A DNA stretch of 64,000 nucleotides from Dudresnaya verticillata (lineage: Eukaryota), in the NCBI GenBank assembly GCA_977862235.1, contig OZ374562.1, positions 682,001 to 746,000 of the forward strand, written 5' to 3'. Position numbers and translations under genes: made by a program. Shown piece after piece: positions 18,649 to 59,924 of this stretch. The notes under the pieces were generated by a model. That model was not told where the DNA came from. It made no database searches and saw nothing but the letters and a program-made list of their open reading frames with translations. Numbering within the stretch: position 1 is the first letter of the stretch; the number at the start of each line of letters is the position of its first letter.

Positions 18649-20223
18649 TGTGGTGTAGCGAAAACCCACGAACTCCGTAATGGACAGCTGGCCTGACGTT
18701 CCTACACGGGACGAGAGCGATACTACTTCCACGGGGTGGTAGAGCAGTTCGCACCGAGACGGGAGAACAGCGATCGGCTAACCGAAACGGATATTGACAG
18801 GAAGCAACAGACAAGGGGATGGTACAAGTGCAGGGACGGACTCGATAATGGTGGTGGTGGAAGACCTCAACGGGCTCGGCGCGGTGAAAACAGTAAAGGA
18901 AAGAGCTACAGTAGGATTGAGGCTCAAGGTTTACATGCCCGTTTACCCGAGGATCCGCTGCCGTGCCGCCCTGATATACAAGGCAGGGTCATAGTGCACA
19001 CTCCTATACCGTCCTAGGCGCCGTTACAACGTCTCGGACTGAGCTCTACGCCCTCGGCGCTACACCGACAACGGCGCTCAAGACGTGAGTTCGGTCGCGA
19101 ACCCGCTCGTGTAGTGCAAGGGGGATGGGGCCCTTTTTCGCTCTGATCTGTAAGCGTGGCCCAGATCCGGATTGGTTCAGGATTGGACATCGGGATCCAA
19201 ATCCGGATCACCCACACCGCTTTGCGCATGTCAGCGCACGCGCCTGTAAGCTACCCGCTAAACGCGTTCAAGTCTGTAAGTTACTCCTTATCCGCGGGTA
19301 CGCGAATGCACGACTACGACGACGTGTCAGACGCACGGTGGCGTGACACGCGTCTTGAGTTCCCTTACACCGCGCCACGCCACCGCCGCCCGCATCATAG
19401 TGGTATTATATTAGGTAACGCGTCTGAGACGTTCGAGTAGACCCCGGAAAGCCGGTCTGCCTTCACACTTCGCCCCTTCGCTCTTTAGCGTCAATGCCGC
19501 TACCCACGTTGGGTACGCGTTGGGACGATCGCGCTTCCGCGTCAATGTCCGTCTTTGACGTGTATACCATTTTTTCCCTCCGAGAAGCTCGGGAGTTCCT
19601 CACCCACAGCGCTCAAGAGCGTACATCGCCTCTATGAGTGTGGGCTACGTGCCGGACTACCACGCACTCATCCACTCCGTTGTGGACGTTCGTTTCCCCC
19701 TTTTCCATTTCTACCGCCTCGGGCGTTTACAGTCCGCCCTTGGCGTGTTACCAGACTCTACCCCCGTCTACGGCCCTCGGCACTCATCCGCCAGAGGCGA
19801 GCTACCGGCCGGGCTACGAAGGGCCGGGACAGTGTTTCCGTCCTAGACGTTTTGCACTACAAGGGTGGCACCGAGCGGTCCCGGTCCCTGGGGCCAGACC
19901 CTAGGGGTCTGATCCTATGGTGGAATCGGCCCTGCTGGTCCCAATCTCCGACACGGGCATGCGCAGCAATCTAATTGGCTGGCGCAATACTCTACACACT
20001 GTACAGGTACTCACTAAAAAGAAAGAATAAATACCACAAATACTCCGCTACGGTTGGTGCGCTCCACTTACAGTACAGCGATGCGTACCAGTGCACAGTA
20101 ATGTGCACACAACCGACACGGTTACACGTTGCCAGATCATCAGCGTGGCGTATTGCCACATCAGCCGTTACGGTTGGCTCGCCGTCGGTGCGCCGCATGC
20201 GCGCCAAGGCTCACTTCACCACA
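18649..20223 (-). repeat. 3' LTR of Gypsy-1, interrupted by a nested insertion at 18990-19861
   Basis: 18649-18989 and 19862-20223 align colinearly with 30226-30932. Confidence 0.92.
18990..19861. mobile_element. Probable solo LTR of another family nested in the Gypsy-1 3' LTR
   Basis: 872 bp absent from the other LTR; flanked by direct repeat AGGGT (18985-18989, 19862-19866); ends CATAGTGCA...TGCACTACA, a near-perfect inverted repeat ending in CA. Confidence 0.75.
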
Positions 20224-20224
20224 G

Positions 20225-20234
20225 ACCCCTCCTT
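20225..20234 (-). promoter_or_regulatory. Polypurine tract of Gypsy-1
   Basis: Minus strand AAGGAGGGGT immediately before the 3' LTR. Confidence 0.75.
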
Positions 20235-20353
20235 AAATGGCGCGCCCTCGGCCGCTCACCGTCACAGATTTCCATCGCCTCCACACCCACACATTGAACC
20301 GATACGGTTAACGCGCTCAACTTTGCCTTCTCCTGCGTGCGCCTTCTTCCAGT

Positions 20354-23183
20354 ATGGCAGGGGAGAAAAGCAAGCGCTCCCCTTCCCCCTTTCAACCAAC
20401 CCGGCGTTCCCGCGCGAGCTCCGCGACGAGAGCGCCGGGCGCGCCTGCAGTTACGGATGCGTCGACACAAGGACAGGCCTCTTCCTCGGCGGCTGCCGCA
20501 CGACTCATGACGCGTGGTCGTACGGACGTTACCGCATCGGAACCGTCTCAGGCACCATCAGCGGGCTGCGGCTGGTGTGTCTACGATCCGAATCGGTTTG
20601 CTGCGCGTGCAGACACCAGGACCGCGCTACCAGAAAATCCAGCGGCCCAATGGGACGGAGAAGCCTCGAGCAAGGACCGTGGTGATGAGATCCGACGTGG
20701 TGGTGAGGAGCTCAACTTGGCGGACCTACCATCCTTTTCCGTTACGGACGCCGTCGACCCCGATCTCAACGCCGATGCGGAGCATGAGTGTGAGCCCACA
20801 TCCGTCAGGCAGCACTCCGAAACGGTCGCGGGTGTGAGTGTGGAGCATTGCGCCTGCTTCAGGGTCTTGGATGCCGACGGCGCGTACCCGTAGCGGTAAG
20901 GGCCCTGCGCCAAGTGGTTGCTAGCCAGGGCACCATTTCGATCACCGTGCGGGTCGCCCGGTGAGATCCGACGCGGAACGGGCGAAGGTGACACCACCGA
21001 GGACAGTTTCGTACTTCATCGAGGGTTACCCAACCGTGTTGGAAGCGCGACGATACCAAGCCGTTTCGGAGCATCCATTCAAGGCAAACCAGCGAATTGG
21101 CTTCGTTCCCAACCGGCGGGTGTTTGTGTTGCAAAGCCGATGGGTGCATAGCTACTGCCAAGAGCGCACCACCACCGTTTCGGATTTGTTATGGTACCGT
21201 TGCCACGGAGAAGTTGATTATACCGCTAAGGCGTTCCATCTACGGGGTGCGCCGATCGGGGTGCAGTTCATCTGCTTCGACCCACCGTATGACCAATCAG
21301 TGCATTGGTTCCGCTATGCCGATGGGTGTAAAGACGACGCGGCAACGGAACACCGATTGCGGACGCGCTACCGAGACGGAATGCATGTGGGCGCACCTAT
21401 CTTGCACACATGGAATACCAAGGAGTTCTTCCACCTTCCGTATCGGATGCGACGTGAGCTCTACCTCACAGCTCCGTGGTGGTGGGATAGCTATGAGGTA
21501 ACCCGTTGGCTATCCGTGCCCACGCCTTCTTTGATGGCGTACTTCTCCGCGGACCTACTCACTGAGCGGGAGTGGAATCGCGAGCATCCGAACGGAGAGC
21601 GTCCCCCGAACCAAGATCAGCTCGACGTCCTTTAGCGCATCTTCCGATCGGAGTGGTCAATGCTGGTGCTGTTTTCGTGGCTCCAGGTTGCCTACTACGG
21701 AGTGCGGTACAATATCAAGTTATCCGACTGGCGGTGCTTCCCGCTTGACGAAGATGACCTACCCGGAGGAGACTGTGACTGCATCTTTCAACTACCTGTG
21801 ACGGTGCTGGCCCTAATTCGCCAAGTCGGCGTAGCCGATTTGGTGACTGGGTCGGCGTATCTCCTCCATCGGGTTGAGCGCCTTTTATCCGTACACGGAG
21901 AGCAGGATTGGCAACGCACGCCGGGATTTTTGGGGTATAATTGGGATGAGAACCGTGTCCTATCGGTGCCCGCGCTTAGGCCCAGAGTGGGTGAGCCATA
22001 TTTCCTTCATCGGGAAGATCCCCGTCCGGAATAGTTAATCTTAGAGGTCCAGACCCATCGGGGTTATGCGCCTCGCCAAGCATCAAGGGATACGTACCGT
22101 GACGTTTTGGAAGGGGCCGAAGATTGGGGGAGTTGTCAGGAGACAGCGGGGCGTTCACGTGCAATCGACCCGCGCGATTCCGTCAGGGTGAGGCAGCAAG
22201 AAGCTAGCCCCTTCTTGGAAGAGCAAGAGGAAGTCATGCCCGTCGCACCTATGGGAACGGATATTGAGAAAACAGCCGCTCCAGTCCTTCGGGTGGTCGC
22301 TACACCTACGTCGCGCGATGTAGATCGTGAGACTACTACTCCCGTATCGAATAAGTCTCCGACGCCCATTGACGTGGTTGCGCCTACTGTGGCGATGCCC
22401 AAGCCCGCGGCACAATCCGAGAAAGGGGCTTCTAAGGAGCAGACCGTTTCGGAAGCAGCGCCGGTTACTGTGCCGGTGGCACTGTCTCCTGTGAAGCAAA
22501 TGCCTGCTTCCGCCGAACCGCTCCCGACAAGTGCTCCGCTGCCGGCACCCACTCCCACACAAGTGGTGAGAGAGGCACCGATCACCGTATTGGAAGGGAC
22601 TCCAAAACGCCCCAGTGCCGAAGCAATTGGCGACAAGCCTTTGGCTCCCTCGTTGAGTCCTGAACCGTTACGGAAAAGCGATATCGTCTCTCCAGAGAAG
22701 GGTACGAATCCACCTCTGCGGAAAGAAATACCTTTACCCGAGTTGGTACCATCCGTAGTGGTGGTTTCCTCAACGGAACATTTAATCGAATCCTGGCTTA
22801 GGGATAAGCCGTCGATATCCCCGAAGGTAGAGTTTCAAGAAGATGAGGATCCCACCGTCACGGTTTCGGCTCACTTAGCCGCTACGGAAAGCGGGTTACA
22901 GGTGCTACGGGGTATTTGCCGTACACAGCGCTTCCCATTGCCAGGATGCGTTCAGAAGGCGCTAACCTTAGCGGATGGACTGATGGAGAAGGTGATTCAT
23001 CTCTACTCAGTGGTCCGTCGTCAGCGTCGGCGTACGGATAATGCGATACGCGTCTTGAGAAACAATACGCAGCGTGCATTCCAACCGGATCCGACTGGAG
23101 AACCCGACTTACGAACTGGGCAGGGGAGCAACGAGGAAGATATAGTTGCCCCCGCTCCAATGCGACGTCGCCGTGACTCTTAA
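20354..23183 (+). pseudogene. Extra antisense coding region inside Gypsy-1 (unknown protein(s), disrupted)
   Basis: Chain of same-strand ORFs (20354-20893, 20961-21635, 21660-22034, 22107-23183) with protein-like composition: aromatic-rich middle, Pro-rich linker, helical end. Lies between the pol end and the PPT. Confidence 0.65.
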
Positions 23184-23283
23184 AGTTGCATTTCGACGAT
23201 CTCCTTAACTGTTTCAAGTATACCCCGACCTTACCTTGCGATAAACGTTGTTCATCCCCATACCCTAGCACTCCAGCTGTCAG

Positions 23284-26200
23284 TTACGGTGAGCGACGTG
23301 TTGGATTAGCACTTCGCCGTAGCTTACCCTTAGCGGATGTCTTTTTCTTTTGCTTCCAATACCGGTAGATGAAAATTTGCCGCAACTCCTCAGCGGGCTC
23401 AAAAGTGTCCTGATCCGGAGGGTATCCATACCAGCCGACTTTATATGTCATCCCAGTGGGTTCGTCGCAGTGACCGACAATCTTGTTGATCACATATTCC
23501 GTATCGGTTTGCAATGGTTCCGTCGCGGCAGGAGCAATTCCTTCTGAATGAGGTAATGCAGTAGTACCTTCTGGAGGTGGTCCTACTTCTCCGTAGACGG
23601 TTGAGGGTGTGACAGGCGGCACCACTACAGGTGTCGGTTGAACAGCGACTCCGATCGGAACTTTCGTAATACGATCGATACTGACGGGGATTAATACCCC
23701 TTCCTTGCGGATTGTAACCACATTTTCCGTTGCGGATTCCACTTCATAAGGCCCCGTGGCTCTCGGAAGGATTTTTTTCATTGCCCGAGCCACCTCGCCC
23801 ACGTCATCCGGTTTGCCTTCCAATCGGTCCCGTTCACGGCGTTCGGCAGGCCGCAAGTTATGGGGCGGCCGGTCAACATACACTTGATCTCCGCTACGGA
23901 TTATGGGCCTAAAGCGCACCTTACGGTCGAACAGTGCCTTGGCTTTTTTCTGAGCCACTGTCTGCTTCGTGCGCGCTGTCTGGAGCGCATACCGTAAACG
24001 GCGCATGGTGCTCCGCTTCTGTAGCACCGGGGTCATACGCCCTTCCGTAACAGTTTCTTGATACTCGACAGGAGCCCCTCGTACAACAATGTCCGATGGG
24101 TGGCGTGTCAGCACCAAATCAAATAGCGTTGTTTCCGTAATACGGTGTACCTGCATGTTGTACGCATAGTATACGTATTACGTCAACGGTTGTAGGTACA
24201 GATCCCAATCGGAGTGATGATCCTCAACGTAATGGCGCAAACGCTGGTCGATTGTCTTATTAAATCGCTCAACTTGCCCATTTGCCTGCGGATGGTAGGC
24301 AGCGGTGAGTAGTTGCCTGACTCCGAGTACGGAACACACCGCAGCAAAGAACTTAGCAGTAAACTGCAGTCCGTTATCGGTTAGGACAAATTGGGGTGCG
24401 CCATAGGCCTACACCCAAAAACCCAAGAAGGCGTTAGCCACCACAACGGCTGTTGTTGTCCATAACGGAACGCAGCGCGTGAGCTTAGAGAAACGATCGG
24501 TTATTACCAAAACGTAGACATAACCCCGTTTTGTCTTCGGAAGTGTCCCGAGGATGTCGATAGCGACAAACCCCAAAGGTCCGCCAGTGGGGAAACGTTT
24601 CATAAACCTTGGATTCCGAAAGCGGGTTCCCTTCGTCTTGACGCAGGAGCGACATGTCCGAACGGATTCAAATAAATCGTTGGCCATATGAGGCCAGTAA
24701 TAATCCTGTCGGAGTGTATAATACATCTTAATTCCGCGTGGGTGACCCGACATCAGGGTGTAGTGGGATAAATACAATACCCGTCCACGGAGTTCGCTTG
24801 GCACACTTCTGCAGAGCACCATCCAATTGGGACTTGCGTACCAAGAATCCGTTTCGGTCATAGTCAAATTGAGATCCAGGGGAGCCTACCGTATCGGATT
24901 TGAGACGACAGAAAGGGTCCCGGGCTTGCGCTTCGAGGAACTCCTCCCTGGTTATTGTCTCATCCTTAACGACGGATTCTTGGATTACAGTAAACCGTGA
25001 CGGCATTGCGTCGGGCTTCTCAGGGGAGGCGGATGCACTTCCACTGGCGGGCTCCACGGCGCATATTACGTTACTTTCCGTAGCGGTTTCTTGCGATGTG
25101 GCCCAATCGGTTAAATAAACTCCATGCTCATATAATCCGTCGACGGTACTTTCGGCGACAAAGCAAGGTATCTCTTCATCCAAAGGTCTATCGTCACCGC
25201 CATCCGTTCGGAGTCGTGAAATCCCATCGGTGAGTTGATGCTTAATTCCTGGACGGTATGGCACCTCAAATTCAAATTCCGATAGGCGGAGCCTCCATCT
25301 GGCCAAGCGGCCAGATGAGTCTGCGAGGTTCAGGATCCATTGCAGAGTATCGTGATCCGTTAGGAGAATAAAGTTGTCACCGTAAAGGTATGGTCGGAGT
25401 GTCAACATGCTCCAGACCACGGCTAAGCATTCTTTTTCGGTTGTAGTATAATATTCCTCCGCATCGGTGAGGCTCCGGCTCCAGTATCCAATAGGGAGGT
25501 GATCGGCATTCTGTTGTTCCTGCAGAAGGACACAGCCGACTTGATGGTCACATGCGCCAGTGTCCAACGTATATTTATATCCGTGACGGGGTAGAGCCAA
25601 TATAGGTGGAGAGATAAGGCCTCTCTTCAGTTCCTCGGAGGCTTCGTATTCCGTATCGAATAATATACCAAACTCAAAGGGTGAGCCCTTGCCGGTTTTC
25701 TTATTCAGCGGCGCTGAAATCCGAGCGAAGTTGGGTACAAAGCGACGATACACGTTGCACATTCCCAAGAAGGATCGTAACTCCGTTTGGTTAGTCGGCG
25801 GCTCGCGACCTTAACGGATTGGATATTCCGATTATCCCCTTCTAATTTTCCGGGACGAATAACATGCCCCAGGTATTGTACAGACGCGTTGAAGAAGTCA
25901 CACTTTGACAACTTCAACGTTACCCCATCGGATCGTAAAAGCGTAAGGACTTCCTTTAGGTGGTGGTGGTGGAAGTGTTCCGTAACGGTTTTTGAGTAGA
26001 CAATTACATCGTCTAGGTAGACGAGGGCAAATTTCCGTTTAACCGTAGAAAGGATTATGTCCACTGCCCGTTGAAAGGTTGCCGGTGCATTCTTCAATCC
26101 GAATGGCATTCTCCGAAACCGCATAAGCCAAAATTCGTAGTGAAGGTAGTTTTATCCCTTTCCTCTTCCGGAATCTCGACTTGCCAATATCCGCTATTGC

Positions 26201-27630
26201 AATCCAGAGTGGTGAATACAGTAGCTTCCCCAAGGGAATCTATGCACTCATCCATCCTGGGCAAGGGGTATGAGTCCCTAACCGTTACGGAATTGAGCCT
26301 TCTATAGTCAACACAGAACCGCATGGTGCCGTCCTTTTTTGGAACGAAAACCACGGGACTGGTCCACTCCGATGAGGCTGGCTCAATTGCCTTAGCGGAA
26401 AGCATGCGATCGATCTCTGTCTTTTCGAGATCTCGGTGCTTATGTCCGACACGGTATGGGGCTTGATATTCTGGCTTCGCTCCGGGAGTTAACTCGATGC
26501 GGTGCTTGGCAGCTGTAATGTTGCCAAGATCGCCACTCCACATTGACTTGTATTCCTCGAGTAGGGTTAAAATCCGTTTACGGAGCGAGGCTTCTTCTGT
26601 AATCTGGACTTGATCCTTCCAGTCGGTAGTATTTGTAGTTTCCGTTACAGGTTTGCTTGCTTCATTGTCGTGGGGGATATGCTGGAGGCCTTTTCGGAGG
26701 TAAGGTTAGAATTAAATGATTGAATAATTCCTCCCTCTCCTTAAATGGATGTATACCGTCAACGGTAAAATAGCAGAAGGGGCAACAGGAGCCAGACCCA
26801 CGACAGTAGATTTGGGCAACCGTACCGGCTTGTTAGAAAAATTAGAGACCCAGATCCGAAACAGTTTGTTAGGTACAACATCCATAATACCATTAGCCGT
26901 TAACGTAAGCTGCTTAAAAGGGGGCTTAGGATGATTTTGTAGAAAGCATAACCCACCCGTGAGGTATTAACCGTTACGGAGGTTTGAGTCATAGGGGAAT
27001 AAGGGTAGATCTTGCTGAACGAATTTTTTGAGAAACCGTAGCGATGGATAAAGATGAGGGCTGTAGGGTTGCGGCGGTACCCGTCTTCGGAATTTTGGCT
27101 TGACCAACAAGAGATACCGGGGGGTAATGGTGAAAAACAACTTTCCGTAACGGGGGAAGGATGTCCTTCACATAGCGGGCGATGAAAGTAGTTCCCAAAA
27201 TACACGGAGCAGCTAAGTTCGCGACCACGAGGAAGTGGACGTGAGCACGGAGCTCTCCGATGCGGACGAAAAGGTGGATCTGACCAAGGGGGCGGATAGC
27301 GCGATTAGATGCATCCCGTAGCGGAGGACTGGTGGCGGGGCAAATGAGGGGTAGCCATTGACGGGGAACTCGCCTGGCACTAATGACATTTGGCCCCGCG
27401 CCACAGTCCAATACGGAGATTATAGGAAGCATCACGCTATCTGTCCGTCCCACGGTAATTCGAATCTTATAATTTTGTTGTTGCATAACACATATAGGAT
27501 CATTGGTGTGAAAAGCCGATGGGAGTTCCGTAACGGTATCTCGCCGATCCCCGGGCGAGTCCACGCTCACGAGAGGTGGAAAGCCGTGAGGCGGGGATGG
27601 CGGCGTCCCTACGCGTCCCCCCTTGCGTTT
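23284..27630 (-). pseudogene. pol: Gypsy-1 pol (protease, RT, RNase H, integrase, chromodomain), frameshifted
   Basis: LDCGAG protease; RFCVDYRRLN, MPFGLKNAPATFQR, YLDD; RNase H TGACDHQVGCVL/EKECLAVVW/RLARWRLRL; integrase GHPRG..CRSC, IDILG, TDNG, GQVERFN; chromodomain YKVGWYGYPPDQDTFEP. Confidence 0.95.
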
Positions 27631-30077
27631 TCCGAAATCAAGGGTGCACCAGTCGGATCCGCCTCCATGGGCTCGCGCAATTCCGCGTAGTCCACTCCGC
27701 CATGGTCCTCTACCGATAATATCGGGGAATTCGGAGGCAGAGGGGGTGTTTGCGGCTTGCCCCGATTCCCTTGCGGATTCGAACTGGTTCCCACGACAAA
27801 CCTGCGGCCTACAGGGTAGTGCCTCTGGACGTTGCGCTCACGCTCTTCCATGAACTTAACCCGATGTCGTTTATCGTCGTTTATCCACGGTAAAACGACA
27901 TGTTCTGCGGAAAGACAGATGCGGCAATTGCCACTTCCGTAAAGGTGTCGGACCCGAGGATCCGATTCATCCCGTAGCGGAGGTGCTGGTTGTTGCTGTC
28001 CTCGCCCATCGTGTGCATTATTTCCGTAACGGTGACTCGGCTGCTGTTGGGGACCAGGCGCCGGGCGAGATCCACCATAGGGGGACCTTGCGCGCGTATC
28101 ATCCTGGGCGGTGTAGGGTGAACGCGTTGCGGGGGTGAAGAGTATGGAGTTGAAAAGGTAACCCCCGTACTTGTTCCCATAGCGGCACCGTGGCCTCCCT
28201 CGCGTTCTAGTACTTGATTATCCGTAGGGGAAAGATTCCCTTGCGACTCATAGTGTACATCCGATATGGAATCCAGCGATAACACCTTAGACGGGCGCGC
28301 TTTAGTGCGCCCATCAAAGACGTGAGCTGGAACGGTTTGGCCTCGAGCTGCCCGATGGGACTGACCCAGGCCAGTTGCATAGCGAGTGATGGCCTGGTAA
28401 TCCAGCTGGGAATGCGTTGCAAGATAGTTTCGCATCTGTTTACGCGTCCCAGGTAGGAGCCCCTCGACGAACAGTGACTTCAATGCCCGATCGGAAAATA
28501 CAGTACCGCAGCTGAGAGCCTTTGCCCAGAGTTGTTTAGAGAACTGCTCTTCCGTCATGGCGGATGTTTGCCTGAAATTGCTGACATCCGTATAGGCTTC
28601 AGCGATCACTTCATCCGTAGCGTAAGTCCTCATTAGGAAATTCACCACCTCGGAGTAAGAGCGGAGTATCTCAGCCTGCTCCACGTCGACCGCCATGGTA
28701 CCTCCAGCAAGCCTAGCCTGTAGAAGGGCTTCGGAATTTCCTTTTAGGAAAAACTGGAAGCACCAGACGGCAACCCCTTCGGCGATGCCATTGATATTAC
28801 AACCGTCACGGAACTTGGCGAGAAATCCCAAGACGGTAATAGGGTCCGTCCCATCGAATGTATGCGACGACATCTGGACGTCTATTTTCTTCCGTATACG
28901 GCTCATGCTCTGTGAGAACTTAGAGCCGTACGTCTTACTCCTCTTATCCAATCGGTAGGTGCGGTAGTCCAGCGCCTTGACAAATGTTTCATGTAGCGGC
29001 CGGATTACCTTCTCCTTTCCTGATTTGGCACCGTGTTTTCTGGCCCGGTGCCTGTTCTCTATATCCTTTACGGAAGAACTCTCTGAGTCATAATCCGTAG
29101 AGGAAGAGGAGTCATGCCTTTTTTTGCGTTTCCGCGATCTTCTGTTTCTCCGTTTCCGCGAGCGGTGTTGGCTATCTTCTGAGCTTGTCTCATTAGATTC
29201 CATACCGGATTGGTGGCGTCGTCGCTGAGTGTGGTCGCCCATGTACGACCTACGGGGCGGGTCAGAGCGGGAGTGTCGGGCATCTCGATTATGCCGACCT
29301 CGACCGGTCCTCCGACTCGGATGGGCTGAGCTGGACGCATCACTGAGATGGTAGCTGCCTCCACCTGATCGAACCGGAACGGTATAGCGTCCTGGCGTAT
29401 GCACATCTGCGTATCCAGGAGAATACTGTAACGGTGGCTGAGTGTGTGTTGGTCCCGTAGGGGCGTATTGATGTTGAGAATCCGTTATGGGAGCCGGTGG
29501 CAGTGGCTCAGAGGGTACTGTACCCGTCTGCAATCCCACAACGGGGGGTTGTTGCGGCTGCTGCGTTCTTTCCTCGACCGGGAAGTCATTCCGTAACGGT
29601 GGTTGCTCAGTAAAAGCTTCCGTAGCGGGAGGCCTTTCCATGCCGGGAATAATCTGGCTCTCGAGCTCGGCGGCCACCTTTTCCTGTAGGATCAAAGCTT
29701 GCACTATTCGAGGAAGGTGCTGCTCCAGATAGGAACTAACCAAAGACGGAACAGTTTCCGAGAGGATATCGCCACTTCTTTTACCATTACAGGTTGTACT
29801 TCCAATCGGAGATGCTATAAAACCCTAGGAAGGACCTCCTACAGGACCCAGTGGACCCGATGGGATTCCGGCTTGGGTTGCGGAGCTGCCTTCTTCGAGG
29901 CGTCTGATCCGACACGGAAACGCGGAGCTTTACCAGCAGCACCCTCAAGGATGTCTTCCGGTTCTCCACTCCGGAACGGATTTCACCTCCTTCACTGCGC
30001 AGACTGCGCGCAGCGGGGGTAGTGTCACCCCCTTTTGGTTCCGTAACGGGAGGGTCCTTGTGTTCTTCTTTTTGCAT
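27609..30077 (-). pseudogene. gag: Gypsy-1 gag, frameshifted
   Basis: ORF 27881-29743 has FDGTDPITVLGFL...SYSEVVNFLMRTYAT, homologous to the gag at 60011; flanking ORFs 27609-27851 and 29787-30077 extend it. Confidence 0.85.
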
Positions 30078-30203
30078 GATACCTTAACGGAACACAACGA
30101 TTGTTCTTGCTTGTGTATCCAATATTCCGTAACGAGTTGTCGGTACAGCCGAAGTCCTACCGTAGCGGATTTCGACGGCTGTTTCTTCCAACCATGACGG
30201 TAT

Positions 30204-30220
30204 TCTAGGTCGGGAGACCA
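30204..30220 (-). promoter_or_regulatory. Primer-binding site of Gypsy-1 (probably tRNA-Tyr)
   Basis: Minus strand TGGTCTCCCGACCTAGA just after the LTR end; identical to the PBS at 59908. Confidence 0.8.
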
Positions 30221-30225
30221 AAAGG

Positions 30226-30932
30226 TGTGGTGTAGTGAAAACCCACGAACTCCGTAACGGACAGCTGGCCTGACGTTCCTACACGGGACGAAAGCGACAC
30301 TACCTCCACGGGTTGGTAGAGCAGTTCGCACCGAGACGGGAGAACAGCGAGCGGCTAACCGAAACGGATATTGGGAAGCAACAGACAAAGGGTGGTACAA
30401 GTGCCGAGACGGACCCCGTAACGGTGGTGGTGGTAGACCGCAACGGGCTCGGCGCGGTGAAAACCGTAAAGGAAAGAGCTACAGTGGGATTGAGGCTCAA
30501 GGGTTGCTTGCCCGTTTACCCTAGGATCCGCTGCCGTGCCGCTCTGATATACAATTCAGGGTGGCACCGAGCGGTCCGGTCCGTGGGGGCCAGACCCTAG
30601 TGGTCTGGTCCTATGGTGGAATCGGCCCTGCTGGTCCCAATCTCCGACACAGACATGCGCATAAATCCCATTGGCTGGCGCACTACTCTACAGACTGTAC
30701 AGGTACGCACTAAAAATAAAGAATAAATACCACAAATACTCCGCTACGGTTGATGCGCTCCACTTACAGTACAGCGATGCGTACCAGTGCACAGTAATGC
30801 GCACACAACCGACACGGCTACACGTTGCCAGATCATCAGCGTGGCGTATTGCCACATCATCGGTTACGGTTGGGTCGCCGTCAGTGCGCCGCATGCGTAC
30901 GCCGCATACGCGCCACGGCTCACTTCACCACA
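30226..30932 (-). repeat. 5' LTR of Gypsy-1 (707 bp)
   Basis: TGTGGTG...CACCACA ends; direct-repeat homology to the 3' LTR. Confidence 0.93.
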
Positions 30933-31250
30933 TTAATGGAGATGCTGTGATAGTATAGAAGCGTACATAAATCCTATAAGAGAGCGCACTCTACATGTAT
31001 ATGGCCTACCGGCCGTGTAGACAGATGCGGTGATGGACATGTGACGGATGTGTGGCAGGACGTTTGACACATCTCGGCCGCGCTGCGGTTTGGATCTTCT
31101 GTGGCTGCCCTTGACATCTAGGTCTCCTCCTGTTCCGATGTACGCATTTAAATGAGCAACGAATGATCGGAAGGGCTTCCTTGCTCCCACAGAACGTACG
31201 GGGGAGCGAGGACAGAAATGTCCAAAGGCTTTTCGCCTTCTCATTGGTCC

Positions 31251-31335
31251 GAAGGGTTGGAGTGCCGCCATAATATGGCGGCACTGCAACCATAATGGCG
31301 ACACTGTCGCCACTATGGCGGCACTGCAACCCTTC
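31251..31335. repeat. Nested inverted repeat (cruciform-capable)
   Basis: GAAGGGTTGGAGTGCCGCCATA (31251-31272) pairs 21/22 with TATGGCGGCACTGCAACCCTTC (31314-31335); an internal partial copy lies at 31274-31291. Confidence 0.85.
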
Positions 31336-31387
31336 TATCCAATAAAATTATGCCAAATCATTTTACTCTGGGAACGCTACGAATAGA

Positions 31388-33293
31388 ATGGATTGCAAAG
31401 GTTCGCACGCAGAGTCAACTTATGTGTACTCTCCGTACCCATGCGTGCGTCTGTGTGTTCCACTATTCATACTTCTAGCCAGGGTTCGGCGCAAATCTCC
31501 GCATTCAGGGCGATCTACTTTGTTCCAGGCGGGTTTCGAGAATATGGGAGGCAGTACCGCCAGCTGTGCCCAGTTTCTTTCCACAAATGCGGAGGGGCAA
31601 GAGGTCGAGTATATCACTGCTGGCCTGAACTCAATTGTCCAAATGGTCGCCGTTATCGAGGGGTACGCGAGGACACAAACCTCCCTCCGAACGCTCACCG
31701 TAGGTGTGTATGTGTGTTGTACAGTGGACGGTCAAGGTAGAAGGGCATTTACACTAAGTGTTCCTGAGCTTCCCAATGCTAATTCCTCAAGTGTACCATT
31801 TCGCACCCCTTCATCGGTACCAACGGCCGTGGAACCTCCACGATCAGCCGCGGAGGATCGCTCGCTTCCCAGGACACCCGCTTCATCCATCCGGGCACCT
31901 GTCCCGGGTACGGCTCCCTCCATACGTCTCGTGTCAACGATACCAACGTTTCCTACGACACAGCCTGACTGACGCGCACCGACCAGAGATGCAATCTCCC
32001 GTTACACCGGCCACCATGTTTCCGGAAGGTGGTGTTGAGGACATAAATGTCTCAAGATGTACAAACAGTATATCTGGTCAACTCGTTCGGACGGGGTGGG
32101 GGCCCAATTTCATTCCCCACGGAAGCTGTGAAACGGTCAAGGTTGGGAAACAAGCCCCTGGAATGAGCTTCTTTTGCATTCCTCCCAAGGCTGTTGCTAG
32201 ATGTATGTCATTTCTTCTGGATGCAAGCTTCGAAACCCGACACACAACCTCTTCAAATGTTCGAAACATTGGTTCTGTTAATGGGCGTAGAGCTATTGCT
32301 TTATTGAATGTCATCTACAAGCGGTAGACAGGAACACGGCGAATGCGCTATACTTCGCTAGTTCCTAAGGATGTATGGGGTCATGATATACACATTCCAG
32401 ACGTACGCCTGGTAAAGGGTCCAAGAGGTTCCAGATTTTCCTGCAAACGATTATTTCGTGTGAGCGCTGATATTGGGAAGCCGATTAGCAATGGGAAGGT
32501 GATGAACGTTGGGATAATTGCGCTCATCCTCAACGATAAAAACCACTATAGTTGGGTCGAAGAAGAGCTCGAGAAATTCGCGAACGAGGGTTTGAATTCT
32601 ACTTGATGTCGGAAAACAGTAGCCTGTACCCCACACTGCAAAGAACTTCCGCTTCCATTGTGCATGGTGTTCAGCTCGCAAATAATCGATGATACTACAA
32701 GAATTGGGAAGGGGAGTTTGGACCCCTTCACATCGTGCTTGAAAGGGGTGCCTGTCCCGGAGCACAGTGCTGTCCTTAAGTTTCATAGTGTGGAGAACCC
32801 CAACGTTGTTAAGGAAACAGCATACAAGGGGCTCACGGTACAGCAATTATTGGACCGCCCAGTAATATGGAAGAAGAACGCGATAAGCCGGGTAATTGTG
32901 AACCATGACTTCCCAGATACCCAACATGACATAGGTACTGCCATTCTTGTGAACAAGAACGTGCATTTGGGTGGTGGAGGTGCTGCGCGGAACATGGACT
33001 TGTCTGCAGCTGTAGAATTATGTGATTTTAGGCCGTTCCGTTTTGGGACAGAAATGTCCCAAACACTTCGAATGGCTTTGGACAGCAGGTACACATTCCA
33101 AGAGTGGTGCAGTGCTGGAGAGCACGCCAGGAAGCTACGGAACCGGCATTTTAGCACGTTTCCAGAAATACCACGAGATATATGCCACAGTGTTGTTTTC
33201 CTGTGGGACGGTGGCCACAAAACTAACTCTTACCCAAGGCCGGGCTTAGTACGAAACAGTCTCGGCTTCGTTCGGAAACAACTCACCTTCTAG
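31388..33293 (+). pseudogene. Unknown protein gene, disrupted
   Basis: Consecutive + ORFs 31388-31972, 31758-32327, 32343-32606 and 32658-33293; the last three are in one frame, separated by single stops. Confidence 0.5.
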
Positions 33294-33469
33294 TAAATAG
33301 CTACTTGTACCGTGCTCTCTTTGAGGGTTGCCGGTTCTGAACTTCTCGTAAAGTTTCACGGGTTGAGCCTGCTTCCCCTGATACCACTTTTTATTCTATC
33401 ATTCTTTGCGGGAAATGAGTTCTCATTCTTTCTAGATAGTTTTTCATGTACTGTGTTGCGCGTGGGCAT

Positions 33470-34789
33470 ACTCGGATACGATCTGCAGTCAACCCCGAAG
33501 CCCATACACCTTCAAGGAACGTACATCAGGATAAGGCTACATAAACCATTCCAGCAGGTCTCCACGTATGGGACGTGAACCTGATGCAGACGTTTTGCAA
33601 GGTTAGTCCCTAGCACTTATGCTCGGTGACGGCGTATCCAACAAGCAGCGTGAACTGTTCCCGTTTTGCGAGGATGCGCGCATCCCTATTCCTGATGGCG
33701 AACATTTGGGGCTCAATATTATACTCCCTATCCGCGCCTTGCAGTTTGTATAGCACGGTACCTCCATTTCTACCTACTTCAATCCTGGATACTTCCATCG
33801 CTGTACCTGGTATATGGTTTCCAATTTTCCTGGTGAGCAGGACCACGGCACCGACTTTCAACTGTAGCACCTGAGGCGCGGAATTCTTGAGCTTGTCCTC
33901 GATGGTAGGCCACAAATGTCCCGAGCGTGATGCGTGTAGAGTTCCGTATCAATTTCTTCCACCCTGTCTCTGTTGTACTTCTCAACATCAACCTTGTGCA
34001 AGAACAACCCCGTATTTGTTCGGAATGGTTCTGGTCCTTTGCTTGTTTCGTTAATACGATCTATGTCCTCCTGTTTGAAGTTCCCGTTCCGGATGTGCTG
34101 CAGTATGTCTTAGAACTCGCGATCCGCAGACTGAAATTGGTTCCTTCCCAAGATTGTAACAATGCCAGTTCCGTACCCACTGAATGTCAAAACCCAAGGC
34201 CGTGACATGTGAACTGACCTGCTCTCCTGAGGCAGGGAACCCTCGGTGGCTATTGGACCGAGTTGAAACGGGTCTCCACACAGAACGACTTGGCGACCCC
34301 CAAAGGGCAACGCCGATGATATGTCTGAACAAGCGTATGTGCGTAGGACGCTGTCAATTGACTCCAGTATCTCTGAGGTCAGGAGGAAGACTTCATCAAT
34401 AACTAGGACCTTTATCTTGGCTATCTCCTCTCTTTTTCAAGCACGCCTTCCCACCTCTCGCACAACTTTCTCCTTCGTGACATTCCAGTTCGTAAAAATG
34501 TTGAAGAGGCTCTGTACTGTATTCCGTCCATGTGTATTGCGGTTTCATGATCGTTCGCACATGCCGCTACGGAAGGGAATTCTCCCAGATTTCTACGGGC
34601 GTATTGAAGGATTTGCTGCAACAAGTAAGACGTCCCACTTCCAGCTCCTCCCAACATGGCAATTGACTTCCCATTCTTGCATTCCTTCAGAGTTCGAAGC
34701 TGCGTAGGGTCCAATATGCAGGTTTGATAATCCATTTCCCCTCTGAGTGGAGCCTCTTCGAGTGTGGATATTCGGCGAGCGCCGACCAT
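33470..34789 (-). pseudogene. Pif1-family (SF1B) DNA helicase, disrupted
   Basis: Motif I GGAGSGTS (degenerate Walker A), LVIDEV, PFGGRQVVLCGDPFQLGPI, LQLKVGAVVLL, REQFTLLVGYAVTEHKC*G, GMVYVALS. Confidence 0.88.
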
Positions 34790-35379
34790 TCTTCTTCGAG
34801 TGTGAACTCCGGAAAGGGCTGCTAGGAGTACTCAGCTGAGTACACGAGGGGAAGCGGAATCCACGTAGTGGCTTCGAACGTCTCGTACGATAACTGTTTC
34901 GCTTGTTTGCTTTCGGCACTGTAATATGGAGGGAGCAGACGCAATGGCGCCCCTCACGTGATTTGGACACCCCCTTCTGGTTAATACCCAATCAGAGCGA
35001 GACATAACTATCCCACTCAGACTTCTGAGTAACAGTACCGATAGACAAGTAGTAATCAATCAACATTGAAGCAGAGACGTTGTACTGTATACAGTACAAC
35101 CTCTCTGCTTTCTTCGTAGTGCTGTATCGATCCACTAAGCTGTAACGGTCCACAAAGCGGACCATTTGTGACAATTGGATGTAACGTTTCAATTGTCGAC
35201 GCATATGCGTAAGCTAATGGATTGAAAGTCTCGGTTTGTTAACAGCTATAGTCAGAAGGGAAATTATATCGTCCCATAAAACATTCTTTCACTGCGCGCA
35301 CAGGCAGTATACCGCTACCTGCAACCGTTTCCATAACAAAGCTCCGCGCCTACTTGGGTGGTCTCATCGTTTACGCAAA

Positions 35380-38300
35380 ATGAACTGGGAAAGCGAGCAA
35401 GCATTTATGGAAGCAGCCCAGTCCTACGAGGTGAAACGTGCTGGGGAGAGAAGGATGGGTCGGGACATAAATGTCCCGACCATGCCATACCCTGAAATAT
35501 CTTCGGGTGCGGAGATCCACAGCTTCGACTACATCAAGCTTGCAAGAATTGAAGAGAGTCTGCTTTCACTTCACGAAACCTTAGAGGATGAGGAGTCCCC
35601 GAATATTGAGTCGCGGGAGAGGGCCTATAAAACCATTTATCAGAACAGACCTGGTCTAAATGAGCACAAGGGGAAGGGTGGTCGCCCACGAGCACCAAGC
35701 GAACAGAGTAGAAGGGATACAGTTCCCGGGTATATTTCAAGTCTGTTATCATCTTTTTTCGCAAGGTCTGGTGGTACTGAAGGATTAATTTCAAGGATTA
35801 AGGGACATTTGGAGTCTCACGGAGTTTATTCACGCACTGGTGGGGAAGTTACACTTGGAGACTATCTGAAGGCTGTGAAACAGATTCCGTAAAGCGATGG
35901 AAAGTGGTTTTTTGTCCTGCCTCGAACCCGTCTATTCTGCGTATGCACAAGGCTACCTTTTTTGCAAGTGGGGCTGTCTAATACGCTAGCAATGGACCGA
36001 CATTTGGTCAGCTCTTGGATCGGAATTCAGGGAGAGATGTTCTGCACTTGTGTTGGTATTACCCAGTTTCGTATTCACGGTGATGCAGGGTAGGATAATG
36101 AAACTTCATCCATTCACGGGGAAGGTCTACGAAGGGCTATTGTTTCTATCGCAGGGCACATTGGGATACCAGAACTCATTTTTGTTCAGATACGTGCTGC
36201 AGTTCAGGCAGGCTTCACCGATTTGGGTACATTTATGCCCCAGTGTCCAAAGGCAGATACCATATTCAACGGGATGGGATGCCTTCTTACACGTGCAGTG
36301 TCACCCTCACACGCCCATATACACTTCATTCTTGTGCGGATTGTCTCTTCATTTTACGTATGCGCTTTCTGTGATACAACACATACAGGAGGCTGTATGC
36401 ACACAGCCTTACTGCGCACAATTCGGGAAGATATGAAGGAACCAAATGGCCCCGTGCGACGTACAGAGGCGACCGTGCCGTCAGGGACAGCAATGTCCCA
36501 TTGCGTTTCAAGTCTACCACTATCTCCAGTAAATTGCTCTCGTGCAGTACGAGTGGATTTGAAGGTAGCTACAACAGCATTACGAGGGCAAGCTTTCCTG
36601 GTAATAGCACCCGGTTTTTGTAGCTCTTGTGGGAGCCCAAAGAATCCAAAAACCAAATTTGTCATGAAGGGTGTTATTATGTGCACCATTGGACCTTGTC
36701 AAATGCATGTGGAACAATTAGATGGCTCTAATGAGAAGTGTTCGGGGAAGGTTCATTCAGAAGGAAAAGATTATTGCCTATTTTTCCAGTCTCTGGTAAG
36801 TGCGGCTACTCACATCCTTCTCAGAAGGGAACCTACTGGGGTTCTGTTGGGGAACGGGACATTGAACAGTATCTTAAATCATTATCATTCTCAAGCAGAA
36901 AGTGCTGCGAGAAGTGGTGTCCTGCCAGGGGGTGCTCCAAGTCGGTCAATTGAGACACTTCATGTCATGTGTTCTGCAATGGTGAAACTAATGACTAAAA
37001 AGCCTCCTCCCTCCCTATTCACGTGCTCCCAATGTGTAAGCGATGACATTCCCATTCTGTGCATCGATGGAATTCAGCTTGGCTACTTGAAGTCGAAGCA
37101 GGTTTCACTGAAGAATGTGTACGAGAGATGTGATCCGATACCCGCGTCTCGATCCCTCAGGAAAATTCAAACGAAGTGGCCCCTCATAACATTCGTCCGG
37201 AGAGAAACAGTTGTGAAACTGCTTCTAAAAGCGCTACATGGCACAGAAGTGGAATGCAGAGCAGCTACAGTGAAAGATTTTGTGCTGTGTGTACGGTTCG
37301 TGTGTCCAGAGGCCATCCCTTCAAACGTTGTTTGAGTTTCAATTTGTGGTGCAGTTGATGGAAATTTCTCAAGAGACGAAGGTAGGTATAGATACCTCAC
37401 ACCACTTCGAGAGCTGACCCGAGTCGTTTTTCATCACAACTCTCTAGTTTACAGATTGTTAAAACCGTTGGGGACATTTCTGTCCCAGATCACAAATAAG
37501 ACAATGTCTACGTTCTTGAGTTCGGAAAATTGCGAAGAGGTGGTAGCATCGGTCTCGCACAAAATAATGCAGTTGGAATCTCCACCAGAAGGAGAATTGA
37601 ATTCAGCTGGTGTTATTTGGAACTTCTGGTATAATGCAAGTCCGCGATGGATTAGGTCTGGATGCAAGGATGTTTTAAGCTTATACAAGATGTTTCTGCA
37701 GGGATCAGTATGTCAGGTCATCAGGAGGACCGACATCATGTCCGTCCTACGTTTGGGTGCAAGATGTTTAAATGGGACTATCGCCGAGGTACAAGAGCTT
37801 TCGCGAAAGCCAAACATTCTCGCTGAGACTGAGGGTGAAACAAGCATTTTAGCGGCACATAGACTACTACAAGCCGGCTTGGGAATACGTTTTGCAGTGG
37901 AAAGGGATAGCAATGCCATGCAGCACCGACAGGACGGACGGACGATGCGTTCATGGCTGGGTCACGTGTTAGGGGCTTGTTACCGCCTGGTAATGGACTT
38001 TTACACGTACTACGATGCTCCCCTCCGCACAAGTTCTGCGGTTGAATACGCAGCGAAATGGAAGGGTTAGGACAGAACTGTCCTGAAGAATTTATTACGC
38101 CAACATCATTCGGAGATGAAAACCGAATGGAACAGTGAATTGGAGGAGGCTTTCCGGACAGCTCAATAATTCCCAGGGAGGGAACGAGTATGGCCTCTTC
38201 CTTTCAACAAAGATGAGATATCATCTTGAATTGAAGGGCTAGGGCCATGTTCAAAAGACTTCAAACAAAAGCAGAACCATTTCACGCCAGGTGTGATGAC

Positions 38301-38849
38301 CATTTCATGCCGATGTCGAAATCCAATCATGTTTGGTACGAAGGTACTATACCGCATTGAGGGACCAAAACCAAAATAGTTTTGAATATGGTGCTATCCA
38401 GATTTCCAAAGTTTCCAAGGTTACTTGTCTACGACTTCTCAATGTGACTTCTCTCGTGTGGTCTATACAGCAGCGCTATAAACGTTTTATTGTGGGCACT
38501 AGAGGGAACCACAATAGTGAGTGACAAGTTTCATGTCGGCAACCATACAGCTTGCTCGCCGTCCTACAATCCGAAGGTGTACACAGAACTGGATCCTTCA
38601 AACACAGTGTCTCATGAGCAGCGAAACAGTTCAATTCAATTGATTACTAGAACATTACGAAACTGCGGCCATGAACTATACACAGTACTTCTTGCCTACT
38701 ACACTATGATAGGAAATGTGAAGGCAAAAACTCGAGCTTCCGTCAGGTTTCAAAGCAGGGCTAAACTCATATCCGAACATGACCTTGAATGGGGATACTT
38801 CGAGTGTTTAGAAATGCGTTGTTTATGTTGTCCTTCCAACTCGCACTGA
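35380..38849 (+). pseudogene. SWIM-finger + KDZ (Kyakuja-Dileera-Zisupton)-type transposase, disrupted
   Basis: SWIM-like CAFC...GCMH; CSSCG; FTCSQC...LCIDGIQLG; CSKDF...FTPGVMTISCRCRNP; RFPKFPRLLVYDF; DKFHVGNHTACSPSYN...NTVSHEQRNS. Several stops and frameshifts. Confidence 0.78.
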
Positions 38850-38999
38850 AATTGTGTTATGATAACATGCATGTAATAAATGTATTGCTAGTGCTTTTAC
38901 ACAATTGCATGCATCTGTGCGTCTATCGTTCAGTTATCTATATTGAATATTCTTATGAATCGGACCTAAATGTCTTAAATACAACAAAGAGGACAACAC

Positions 39000-40900
39000 G
39001 GGCGCCACAGAAAAGCGATATCGCTTTGCTGTGCGTATGAGCACGAGACAGAAATGTCCTCCACAAATGAAAGCTTTCATTTATGGAGGACATTTTTGTC
39101 CCCTAGGGGTCAATGCACTTTGAATATGGAACCATCCGGACGTAAATGTCTTCCACAAATGAAAAGTGTCAACTGACTGTGGATATGGTGTTATGTGCAT
39201 ATATGAGAATGCGTTTCACCCATATGGGACTCATATGAGTGCCCCTAGGTCTCCTGAAAGTCTTTTCTTCTGTTCACGTCATTTTCGTCCCACTCTGCAA
39301 ATACACGTAGTATGCAATGTATTTCACCAAATGGTATCTGAGAACGGCCGTTCGCCGACCCCCGGGTGAATCTCGATTCATCTGTGTGCAGCCATTTCTG
39401 TCTCACATGTGAGAGACAAATGTCTCTCTTGCCTCGCCAATGGGTGAGGTAAAAGCATTTGTATGTGATGTATCGAAACTTTGTCTAAATATCTACACAT
39501 CAATAAACAACTTCAATTGTTACTAATCTACGTATGCACATGATGCATGCATCATGATGCATCCATTATGTGCCTACATACAACAGTAGCATTATTTCAC
39601 CGACCAAAACAGCCACGCCTGGTTGTGTGTGTTAGTAGAATCGTATGATTTCAAATCATAACAGTAACAATGTTATATATCATAGGTTACTAGTCAACAG
39701 CTGTCCAAGATTCGATGCAAACGTTCATACGTATACGTATATATATATGTGTATACAAACTTTGCATATGCCGCGGAATGGGAAGAAATCTTTAAACTGT
39801 ACGCTCAACCGTCATGAATCATGTATGTGTCAACATCGCCAGACAGACGTCTGTGACGTCTGTGACGTCTGTCTGGCGATGTTACGTACGTACAGATATA
39901 TGTACATCTGGTCATGATATATGATCTGTCTATACATGTATGTATGAAGGTGACGGTGATAATACCATCTTCACATAGATGTTATGGAATGATATGACCT
40001 TTTGAAGTCATGATGCATATGAATGTGCACATTAATTTGCATGCACATCATCACAAAACTAGTTTTGCAACCATGGCCGCGGTTACTGTGCCCACAGTTA
40101 CGAAGGTTCGTACAACTGGCTTGCAGCACCCGGAGGTAGTCGTATTTCATCGCCTGTAAACTATAGTAGAGATGTATACAATTGCGACTTTATTTAACCC
40201 GGCCCATCTTTATATTCCCGCATAAAACTTAAGTTACCAACATCCAACAGAGATTACCCCAAAATACTAGAGTTTAAAATCTTGGATATGTCATATTGGA
40301 GTGACGATATTTTTGTGTCGACGCAACTGAAGGATCCTTCAGACCGGGACATAAATTTCCCAAGGCCCTGGTGGTCGTGGACAATCCAGAGAACCTTCAG
40401 AAACGTTTGATAACATATATATAAGATCGCTCGAGCGAATGAGAAAATCCATATATGCGCATAGGGCAATACTGTCTAGACATGATGATCAATATGCGCT
40501 CACGAAATCAGCATCTATGTGGTTATAACCGGATACATCCGTCCGGATACCAGTCATATGACCGGGTCATTTGAGCCGCACGCGGTGCACCGTGCTACTG
40601 AAATATCATAAACTAATCTTAATGTTAACATGTTAACATGATTAATTAACATGAATCCATAACCTCAGCCATGGTTTCATGGGTTCAACTTGATTTCATG
40701 AGTTCAACCTGCAGGTATACCATAGTAACAAATGATCATTTGTTACCATTTGTTCGGACAAATCCCCAGTTCTAATATAGTGTTGACCGCAAAAGTGTCT
40801 CACTCTTTTATCAGGAATTAATGTACATGTACAACTTTCTCAACGTTGAACTTTCACCACAGTCGCGACTTCTGCAACATGTTCTGCAAAACAATTGCAC
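39000..40900. other. AT-rich non-coding palindrome field
   Basis: Perfect palindromes at 39012-39027, 39065-39082, 39539-39556, 40054-40067, 40622-40639 and 40725-40746, plus a hairpin with 20-bp arms at 39832-39883. Confidence 0.85.
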
Positions 40901-42280
40901 CGCAACCATGTTTGTGACACAGCGGGCAGCCGGAAGATTTATTCTCTAAAAGGTTGGACAAGAATATCTTCGCTCCAGTATGTTATGGCAGTGTTAACAC
41001 AGATAATTCTCTGCACAATACGAGTTGCCCTCCCACACATTCCAACCGTGTACGCATTGAAATGATTCATGAATCCCGAGAATATTCTCGGGCTAAGTGG
41101 TTGCACGGCCGGCCGCATGGGTCCACTCTCAGTTCTCAAATCTTCGTGGCCTCTTCCTCTGTCGCCTTGGGTTGCGACGCGCCTCGCGCGGATCAGCCTG
41201 AACGGCCGGCTCAGAAATCACCGGTTCATGTTCGGCCGCCGCTGCCTGCGCCAAACGTGGCGTACCACTTTCCTCTCCACCCTGAGTATCTGCAGCCGCG
41301 TTAGGCCTGGCAGGAGCTCCACTGGGTCCCACACTTACCGTCTCCGACCCACTCTGATTAACTTGAGATATCTGCTTCGAAGCCACGAGGTCTGCCTGGG
41401 ATATGTGTTCCTTCCACTCCAGATCCAGCTTCTCAACCATGTCCTACAGCACGACTTGAAACTGTGTCTCTCCGCTTGGATGCTTTACTTTCTTGAGGGT
41501 ATCCGCACCATTCTCATCAACGGCCACCTCCAAACTGTCTACTAGCTCTAGAGCTTCTTTAGCTGCCGGAAATGTAGGTGATTTCTTCTCCTTGCACTCC
41601 CGACCGAGAAGGTCCTGGGACATTTCTGTCTCTACAGATGGCTTTGGTGCTTTCGATCCGCATATCCCATCTTTGGTACCAATATCTGCACCAGACAGCG
41701 TGCGCTGTTCCCGGAGAGTCCTCTATTCTTCACAACAACATCTCCATCATCATCACCCGTTAGCGACGCCGTTGACTTCTTCTCTCTGTCTTCGACTGCG
41801 TTCGAACCCGAATCTTTCTCGATCTCCTTCGGAGTTTCAACAGCACCACCGGCTGGGTTCGAAATCCAGTAGCGACATATGAATATATACTGATACCCAT
41901 TCTCACGCCATTTGACATAACAGCTGTGCTAGAAGTCGGTAGCACAGAGACGGCCTGTGCCCCGAGCGGAGTAGCAGCAGCGTCACGAATCGTACCACCA
42001 CCTGGCGGGATGCAGTTGCGCGACTGCGGGAATCGTGACATTATTCCCGCACTTTATTGAGTGCGCGTACCACGGGACATTTCTGTCTGAAGAAATGGTT
42101 TGCCTGCTGTACCAGCATCGACTGCTCAGGAACCACCCCCAGCATCCCTCAGCGCTAGCATGATACTAGCCTTCCCATTCCTACTTCCGACGGCACGCAT
42201 CCCGCGGGATTCAGCATCATCAGGAGTAGAGTCCTCCTTCACAGTTTCAGCAGCATACTTAGAACCTGCTCCTGGGCAAA

Positions 42281-43407: not shown

Positions 43408-43573
43408 TCCTTCTCAGATGGAGGCATCTCGATTTCAGCAGGCCCGCGTTCTTCCGCAATGGCCTCACTCCGAAGAATGGACACCCACGGATCTCCATAT
43501 GCCTGTTCCTCAGACGTATCCGGCATGATGGTCTAGAATGTTTTCCATACGACGCAGGCCGCTTTGGCGCGGA

Positions 43574-59905: not shown

Positions 59906-59907
59906 TT

Positions 59908-59924
59908 TGGTCTCCCGACCTAGA
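59908..59924 (+). promoter_or_regulatory. Primer-binding site of Gypsy-2 (probably tRNA-Tyr)
   Basis: TGGTCTCCCGACCTAGA 2 nt after the LTR-terminal CA. Confidence 0.8.

Follow-up and report, generated by a model that had tools for sequence, protein, structure and literature searches.

In Arabidopsis, VANDAL elements, which are Mutator-like DNA transposons, carry a short, dense motif that is family-specific, differs between sister families and is paired with a fast-evolving accessory gene, VANC (available passages of PMC5735166 and PMC10398659). [quoted passage not shown]

Gypsy-1 shares with VANDAL elements a dense short motif confined to one family and different in relatives, yet it is an LTR retrotransposon and not a DNA transposon. 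In the passages cited above, VANC targets are mainly non-coding tandem repeats in one orientation, while those of Gypsy-1 are single, spaced palindromes dispersed over coding DNA and LTRs in both orientations. VANC is reported as MAIN-like and dicot-specific (available part of PMC13547354). A comparison based on Pfam only gave no informative or relevant match for the 54 members of the antisense protein family at E ≤ 0.1. VANC binds and demethylates its targets; for Gypsy-1 both activities could be proposed by analogy.

The nearest red-algal precedent, according to the accessible text of a preprint (bioRxiv 10.1101/2025.02.11.637652), is the self-binding proposed for the accessory protein PAG3 of Plavaka, a red-algal transposon with inverted-repeat motifs. 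Plavaka is, however, a DNA transposon with tandem arrays beside one gene and a ParB + 2-oxoglutarate (2OG)-oxygenase protein, whereas Gypsy-1 has an element-wide array and a protein without a recognized fold. No ParB or 2OG-oxygenase Pfam match was found in the antisense family. The preprint gives no InterPro domain for PAG3, and the two proteins were compared by description only. Retand-type elements also have an antisense ORF (TRP28) between pol and the 3' LTR, in the same orientation, for which nuclear location or DNA binding has been suggested (excerpts of PMC7264820 and PMC11963269). In contrast to these, Gypsy-1 is a chromodomain element, Transposase_28 (PF04195) was matched by 0 of the 54 antisense-family members at E ≤ 0.1, and the Retand excerpts deal with tandem arrays specific to a family rather than with a palindrome that runs through the whole element and its coding DNA. 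In Spm/CACTA elements, TnpA activates cognate copies by sequence recognition (excerpt of bioRxiv 10.64898/2026.08.24.746577), but such proteins are transposase-derived regulators of DNA transposons, and the antisense protein of Gypsy-1 showed no transposase similarity. Retrotransposon systems of this kind are absent from the available portions of PMC13547354 and PMC12844716, and the function of LTR-retrotransposon antisense ORFs is considered an open question in the excerpt of PMC7264820. No description of an element-wide palindrome in an LTR retrotransposon was found in the part of the literature covered; Repbase entries, most subscription papers and supplementary material on Bostrychia (Fig. 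13, Table 6) lie outside it and may bear on novelty.

Palindrome array of Gypsy-1

Exact copies of CCGTWACGG (W, A or T) were found 13 times in the window, all of them inside Gypsy-1, the remainder of the 64 kb being free of them, against chance expectations of 0.08 (uniform), 0.12 (base composition) and 1.6 (order-4 Markov model trained on Gypsy-1). They were distributed among the 5' LTR (2), 3' LTR (1), leader (1), gag (2), pol (5) and the region of the antisense ORF (2). Recounting thus verified a previous reading made from the letters without database searches (the sequence-only reading) as to the number, positions and placement of the copies, their absence elsewhere and an expectation of about 0.1. 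Its description of the motif was right for the exact 9-mer but too narrow, since the full word reads W-CCG-NNN-CGG-W, its spacer showing a preference for TWA.

The core CCG-N3-CGG occurred 61 times within 18,640–30,935 (12.3 kb) and 15 times in the remaining 51.7 kb. One of the 61 lies in a nested insertion of 872 bp, which served as an internal negative control against the six sites of the surrounding 702 bp of LTR, and Gypsy-1 proper (11.4 kb without the insertion) holds 60. Within the same interval, CCG/CGG stems with other spacer lengths reached counts of 3–18, and the remaining 3-bp stems made of G and C only, again spaced by 3 nt, reached 3–8. A weight matrix yielded 119 sites vs. 15 in shuffles (19,863–30,932), an excess of approximately 100 or one per 90–100 bp, this matrix having been trained on the same Gypsy-1 data and having drifted to a loose symmetric form.

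Four parts of Gypsy-1 held 10–11 sites per kb, namely the 5' LTR, the right-hand portion of the 3' LTR, the leader and the segment upstream of the antisense domain; elsewhere the density was 2–7 per kb, with no sites in the integrase core. More than half of the sites (35 of 60) fall within the frames of gag, pol and the antisense domain. Orientation was balanced in gag-pol (38/37) and the flanks of the sites were unrelated (on average 10 of 40 positions identical), and therefore an origin by tandem duplication is not indicated. No periodicity at 3, 10–11 or 150–200 bp was found in Gypsy-1. The array is element-wide, family-specific, codon-independent and palindromic.

Codon, stem-loop and mutation controls

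In order to control for coding constraints, synonymous codons were permuted 2000 times with amino acids fixed. Coding DNA of Gypsy-1 contained 36 CCG-N3-CGG sites vs. 6.9 ± 2.4 after permutation (maximum 14), and seven exact 9-mers vs. 0.42; sites used all three reading frames. Hence the enrichment did not vanish under a codon and amino-acid control, nor was the motif common in non-element DNA of the window, where it is rare; the sequence-only reading had named both outcomes as contrary to its claim. When each element was tested for its own word, coding counts were 32 vs. 5.0 in Gypsy-1 and 12 vs. 2.7 in the related locus L012, values reached by none of 500 permutations in either case. The peptides are somewhat skewed toward sequences that permit the motif (92 vs. 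60.9 ± 6.8 windows). Of 49 aligned cases at homologous codons of seven relatives, none retained the motif and one had the same peptide. A peptide-only test for traces of motifs in protein relatives was dropped after its positive control failed.

CCG-NNN-CGG could close a triloop. Local stems were predicted for the motif no more frequently (0.16–0.23) than for control stems (0.31), however, and flank complementarity around the sites (14 pairs vs. 21.7 expected) was not raised. Neither tandem arrays carrying the motif in Gypsy-1 nor any Rfam match were found.

The persistence of CpG-rich motifs in a decaying element, which the sequence-only reading held to be noteworthy, carries no weight, because CG is not hypermutated between the two LTRs (transitions of 0.065 per site at CG vs. 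0.078 at CHH) and the CpG observed/expected ratio is near expectation over the whole window (0.72–1.17). In Gracilariopsis chorda, methylation is mostly non-CG according to the available text of PMC8566409.

Palindromes of other elements

A scan for reverse transcriptase (RT) provided 81 related loci, namely the best 80 of 262 metagenome loci (GC 61–73%) and contig L081, which is filed in a bacterial metagenome-assembled genome record and probably represents host contamination. They fell into four groups of 64, 14, 2 and 1 loci. Palindromes were scanned in the 69 loci of at least 4 kb (12 shorter ones were dropped), with element-limited, maximum-z nulls. The highest z values corresponded to Gypsy-1 (17.6), L012 (10.0), Gypsy-2, a second retrotransposon of the window (9.8), L024 (8.3) and L081 (8.0), while the other 66 loci included L056 (8.0), L038 (7.8) and a remainder at ≤ 6.7 (null maxima 3.8–6.6). 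An initial impression that relatives are free of such motifs, based on gag-pol only, was overturned by the element-limited tests. Two candidates were discarded: the signal of L054, strong in a scan that was not element-limited but at z 5.9 in the element-limited one, was taken to be a low-complexity GCC repeat, and CTCC-N5-GGAG, found 1–8 times in each copy among the nine clade-0 loci listed, occupied inherited positions and counts at most as one weak observation. No relative was found by RT scan of viral contigs or when metagenome, viral and genome contigs were scanned with a gag alignment.

Each element had a different word. GAGG-N5-CCTC occurred eight times in Gypsy-2 (0.1 expected), whose RT is 69% identical to that of Gypsy-1 and whose primer-site 17-mer is the same; CAC-N7-GTG was present 17 times in L081 vs. 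2.7, with 8 vs. 2.2 in coding DNA (reached by 1 of 1000 permutations); L012 and L024 held 43–45 copies of CCC-N3/4-GGG vs. 9–12; and GACA-N4-TGTC was counted 18 times in the neighboring PIF1/Ulp1 block (0.4 expected). The words were mutually exclusive, with cross-counts near zero. The word of L012 and L024, similar to CCC-TWA-GGG, differs from that of Gypsy-1 by one symmetric base pair, and exclusion was reciprocal: within one mismatch, Gypsy-1 had 52 sites of CCG-TAA-CGG vs. 4–8 for the three other CCx-TAA-xGG words, and L012 and L024 had 21 and 23 of the CCC word vs. 4–6 for the others (0 in the flanks of L012). The RT tree did not resolve the Gypsy-1 and L012/L024 families as sisters.

No palindrome rose above the null in host-like stretches of the window. 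A PIF/Harbinger-type transposase at 15,260–18,060 (PF04827, E 3e-54), accompanied by a convergent second ORF, was also devoid of palindrome enrichment, so that not every transposon here is tagged.

Antisense ORF and its protein family

Read with X at its two in-frame stops, the antisense frame (20,925–23,180) encodes 752 residues, comprising a conserved domain of approximately 350 amino acids, a low-complexity region and a basic tail; an upstream frame (20,312–20,893) may be its N-terminal part. A library search with this protein retrieved 52 matches at E ≤ 0.001, nearly all to the first ~350 residues and with 24–40% identity; the repetitive match P0051 was left out of the family. The family is multi-copy in Gracilariopsis chorda (PXF39757.1, an intact member, and near copies) and present in a transcriptome of Gracilaria changii. 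Two pairs of antisense-domain and gag relatives (P0035/P0010 and P0025/P0015) had equal longest contigs (8376 and 2919, respectively), a hint that they derive from the same contigs.

An antisense ORF also occupies this position in L012 and L024; that of L012 (L012:13196-15463) is intact (756 aa) and homologous to the Gypsy-1 ORF (hhalign probability 95%, E 2e-8). An NLS-like (nuclear localization signal) basic patch was detected at the C-terminus of 10 long homologues out of 23, against a chance expectation of 1.0; these 10 represent 7 of 16 clusters. Among gag relatives it was detected in 0 of 21. A C-terminal helical motif noticed by eye did not generalize past its six seeds.

The domain was predicted with good scores (pLDDT, the predicted local distance difference test, 87; pTM, the predicted template modeling score, 0.88). 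A PDB sequence search gave no match, Foldseek against PDB and viral structures gave none at E ≤ 0.001, the best Z in a VIA fold search was 3.1 (root-mean-square deviation 4.0, 74 aligned) and, with the L012 model as query, 2.9 (3.8, 79 aligned), and no usable match came from an Atlas fold search. Such blank fold searches are no proof of a new fold. Word-based searches with the protein returned nothing, or only a member of the query alignment.

Elsewhere, antisense ORFs of 700–1250 aa that share a C-terminal motif and whose central domain is conserved were observed in the high-GC clades (L003:5097-7907, L005:8209-10338, L007:9671-12547 and L049:11045-14788); these are at most distant relatives of the Gypsy-1 family. 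Weak homologues of the domain lie on the plus strand at L007:14248-14784 and L045:12144-12686, the former probably being part of a neighboring element because it is outside the LTRs of the RT-bearing one. In L081 the contig ends inside an antisense frame (L081:10190-10414) whose C-terminus has a basic NLS-like tail, and which is probably the end of that family's antisense ORF.

Interpretation of the array

The pattern is real: it is well above chance, different words recur in independent relatives, and one comparison ties it to an uncharacterized accessory protein. The array is very likely a selected protein-binding tag on double-stranded DNA. Its reader is probably the antisense protein, given that the two families with homologous proteins have words one base pair apart and that the protein looks nuclear and fast-evolving. 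The favored reading, to which we assign a probability of about 0.5 and which is modeled on VANC, is that a family-specific word marks the element's own double-stranded DNA for the antisense protein, allowing a family-selective escape from silencing. Selection would have built the sites singly through point substitution; the antisense protein would read the palindrome, probably as a dimer, and act in the nucleus; and, once bound, it would keep or restore the activity of its own family in host chromatin, escape from silencing being the pay-off as for VANC. More tentatively, and at somewhat less than even odds, these elements could share a red-algal Ty3/Gypsy self-recognition code, in which a new-fold, antisense-encoded DNA-binding protein would read a palindrome recurring about every 100–200 bp in the family's own genes, word and protein would co-evolve one base pair at a time, and each family would lift host silencing from itself only. 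If true, LTR retrotransposons would gain their first VANC-like system, together with a natural library of reprogrammable DNA-binding specificities, for which Gypsy-1 offers a candidate protein, a predicted site and a related family's predicted site one symmetric base pair off.

The sequence-only reading had also proposed a binding tag for an element-encoded protein, in parallel with a hairpin motif in the neighboring block. Family specificity was borne out by four other elements with different palindromes, while the link to the ORF is suggested through one homologous family; the palindrome of the block is real, but the Gypsy-1 motif does not behave as a hairpin.

Several observations weigh against the favored reading. 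The link between protein and motif involves two families, the Gypsy-1 evidence comes from a single copy, Gypsy-2 is cut by the window end and the L081 contig ends inside its candidate antisense C-terminus. The motifs of relatives were picked post hoc, though tested against maximum-z nulls, and the NLS pattern was likewise chosen after the tails had been seen. The antisense ORF of L012 has no NLS-like tail, and the antisense domain is charge-neutral rather than net basic and matched no known DNA-binding family. In addition, RT clades 0 and 1 (78 of 81 loci) hold long antisense ORFs that are only marginally similar (7% probability and E 0.005 in hhalign, against E 0.7 for a reversed control), and yet 64 of their 66 analyzable loci had z ≤ 6.7, with two at 7.8–8.0, level with L081. 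Finally, the PIF1/Ulp1 block is a different kind of DNA with its own palindrome, and the habit may thus be host-wide.

One alternative is a tag read by an element-encoded protein, which could also be integrase or Gag, for a replication step such as coating or protection of complementary DNA, import into the nucleus, integration selective for the family or a self-limiting control of copy number. The sites span the whole element including coding DNA, unlike VANC targets (passages of PMC5735166), plant antisense ORFs have been proposed to be retroviral-accessory-like (excerpt of PMC7264820), and weak sites were slightly more even than random at one threshold and not at stricter ones (coefficient of variation 0.72 vs. 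0.89, p 0.009). This alternative is nonetheless rather unlikely, given that the words of the families differ wholesale despite their conserved RT (69% between Gypsy-1 and Gypsy-2), that the antisense protein diverges fast (22–38% identity), and that density peaks in LTRs, leader and the segment upstream of the antisense domain, as would suit control of promoter or chromatin.

It is also unlikely that the sites are bound by host factors recruited by each family (transcription activators, insulators or zinc-finger proteins), with the antisense ORF doing another job. Both retrotransposons and the PIF1/Ulp1 block of the window share the habit, clades with antisense ORFs and without a strong palindrome exist, and AACGG, the Myb/MSA core, lies inside 24 of the 60 sites. 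On the other hand, AACGG is absent from the other 36 and, outside full sites, is raised no more than TACGG, GACGG or AGCGG; a separate host factor would be required for each of five elements; non-element DNA of the window has few copies of the motif; and the shift by one base pair accompanies a homologous ORF encoded by the element.

An origin of the array as a by-product, whether of bias in codons or peptides, of a hot spot of mutation, of tandem duplication or of selection for RNA stem-loops, is highly improbable and largely refuted, despite the skewed peptides and the possible triloop, as the enrichment survived both synonymous permutation and codon-order shuffles, density was highest in non-coding parts, tandem arrays, flank pairing, an excess of other stems and Rfam matches were all lacking, and different families use different words.

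Anatomy of Gypsy-1 and surrounding features

Gypsy-1 is a decayed chromodomain Ty3/Gypsy element. Its Pfam domains are ordered on the minus strand as expected for this group (RVT_1, RT_RNaseH, Integrase_H2C2, rve, the latter weak, and Chromo), and its LTR pair has TG...CA ends and a target duplication, as LTR retrotransposons do; it is called decayed because its frames are broken and its LTRs differ at 45 of 665 aligned columns. The only named gag relative among 21 matches was from Agarophyton chilense, a red alga like the two species named for the antisense protein. The coordinates are summarized in Table 1.

Table 1. Coordinates of Gypsy-1, its parts and other features of the window (sites, CCG-N3-CGG).
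Feature	Coordinates	Strand	Remarks
Gypsy-1, decayed Ty3/Gypsy LTR retrotransposon	18649..30932	-	TG...CA ends, LTRs, Pfam domains
Target duplication of Gypsy-1			5 bp, single mismatch (ATAAT/TTAAT)
Dispersed array of W-CCG-(T/A)WA-CGG-W sites	18754..30869	both orientations	13 exact, 60 CCG-N3-CGG
3' LTR, split in two (18649-18989 + 19862-20223)	18649..20223	-	6 sites
Nested insertion, 872 bp	18990..19861		inside 3' LTR of Gypsy-1; AGGGT target duplication
Antisense ORF between pol and 3' LTR	20925..23183	+	two in-frame stops; 9 sites
pol, several broken frames	23284..27880	-	Pfam domains of RT, RNase H, integrase and chromodomain; protease region placed from position; 19 sites
gag	27881..29824	-	7 sites; relatives 34-66% identical
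Primer-binding-site-like 17-mer	30204..30220	-	adjoins 5' LTR; identical in Gypsy-2 and L081
5' LTR	30226..30932	-	8 sites, 11.3 per kb
Block with PIF1 helicase (E 1e-16) and Ulp1 protease	31209..55025		palindrome GGGACA-N4-TGTCCC throughout
Gypsy-2, cut by window end	59592..63089	+	palindrome GAGG-N5-CCTC in upstream region, gag and pol

The 17-mer next to the 5' LTR would, from its position, serve as primer-binding site. The nested insertion is likely a solo LTR of another family; it could have a word of its own, CG(C/T)C-N3-G(G/A)CG (4 + 3 copies vs. 0.1 expected each), although the insertion is too short for judgement. The PIF1/Ulp1 block is a decayed stretch of approximately 23 kb, in which the portions near 36.1–38.5 kb and 51.5–52.7 kb, with no Pfam match, look by eye like KDZ-type and Plavaka transposases. 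A 706-aa ORF on the minus strand (11,842–13,962), without a Pfam match, includes a long 6/12-bp tandem repeat (11,863–12,232).

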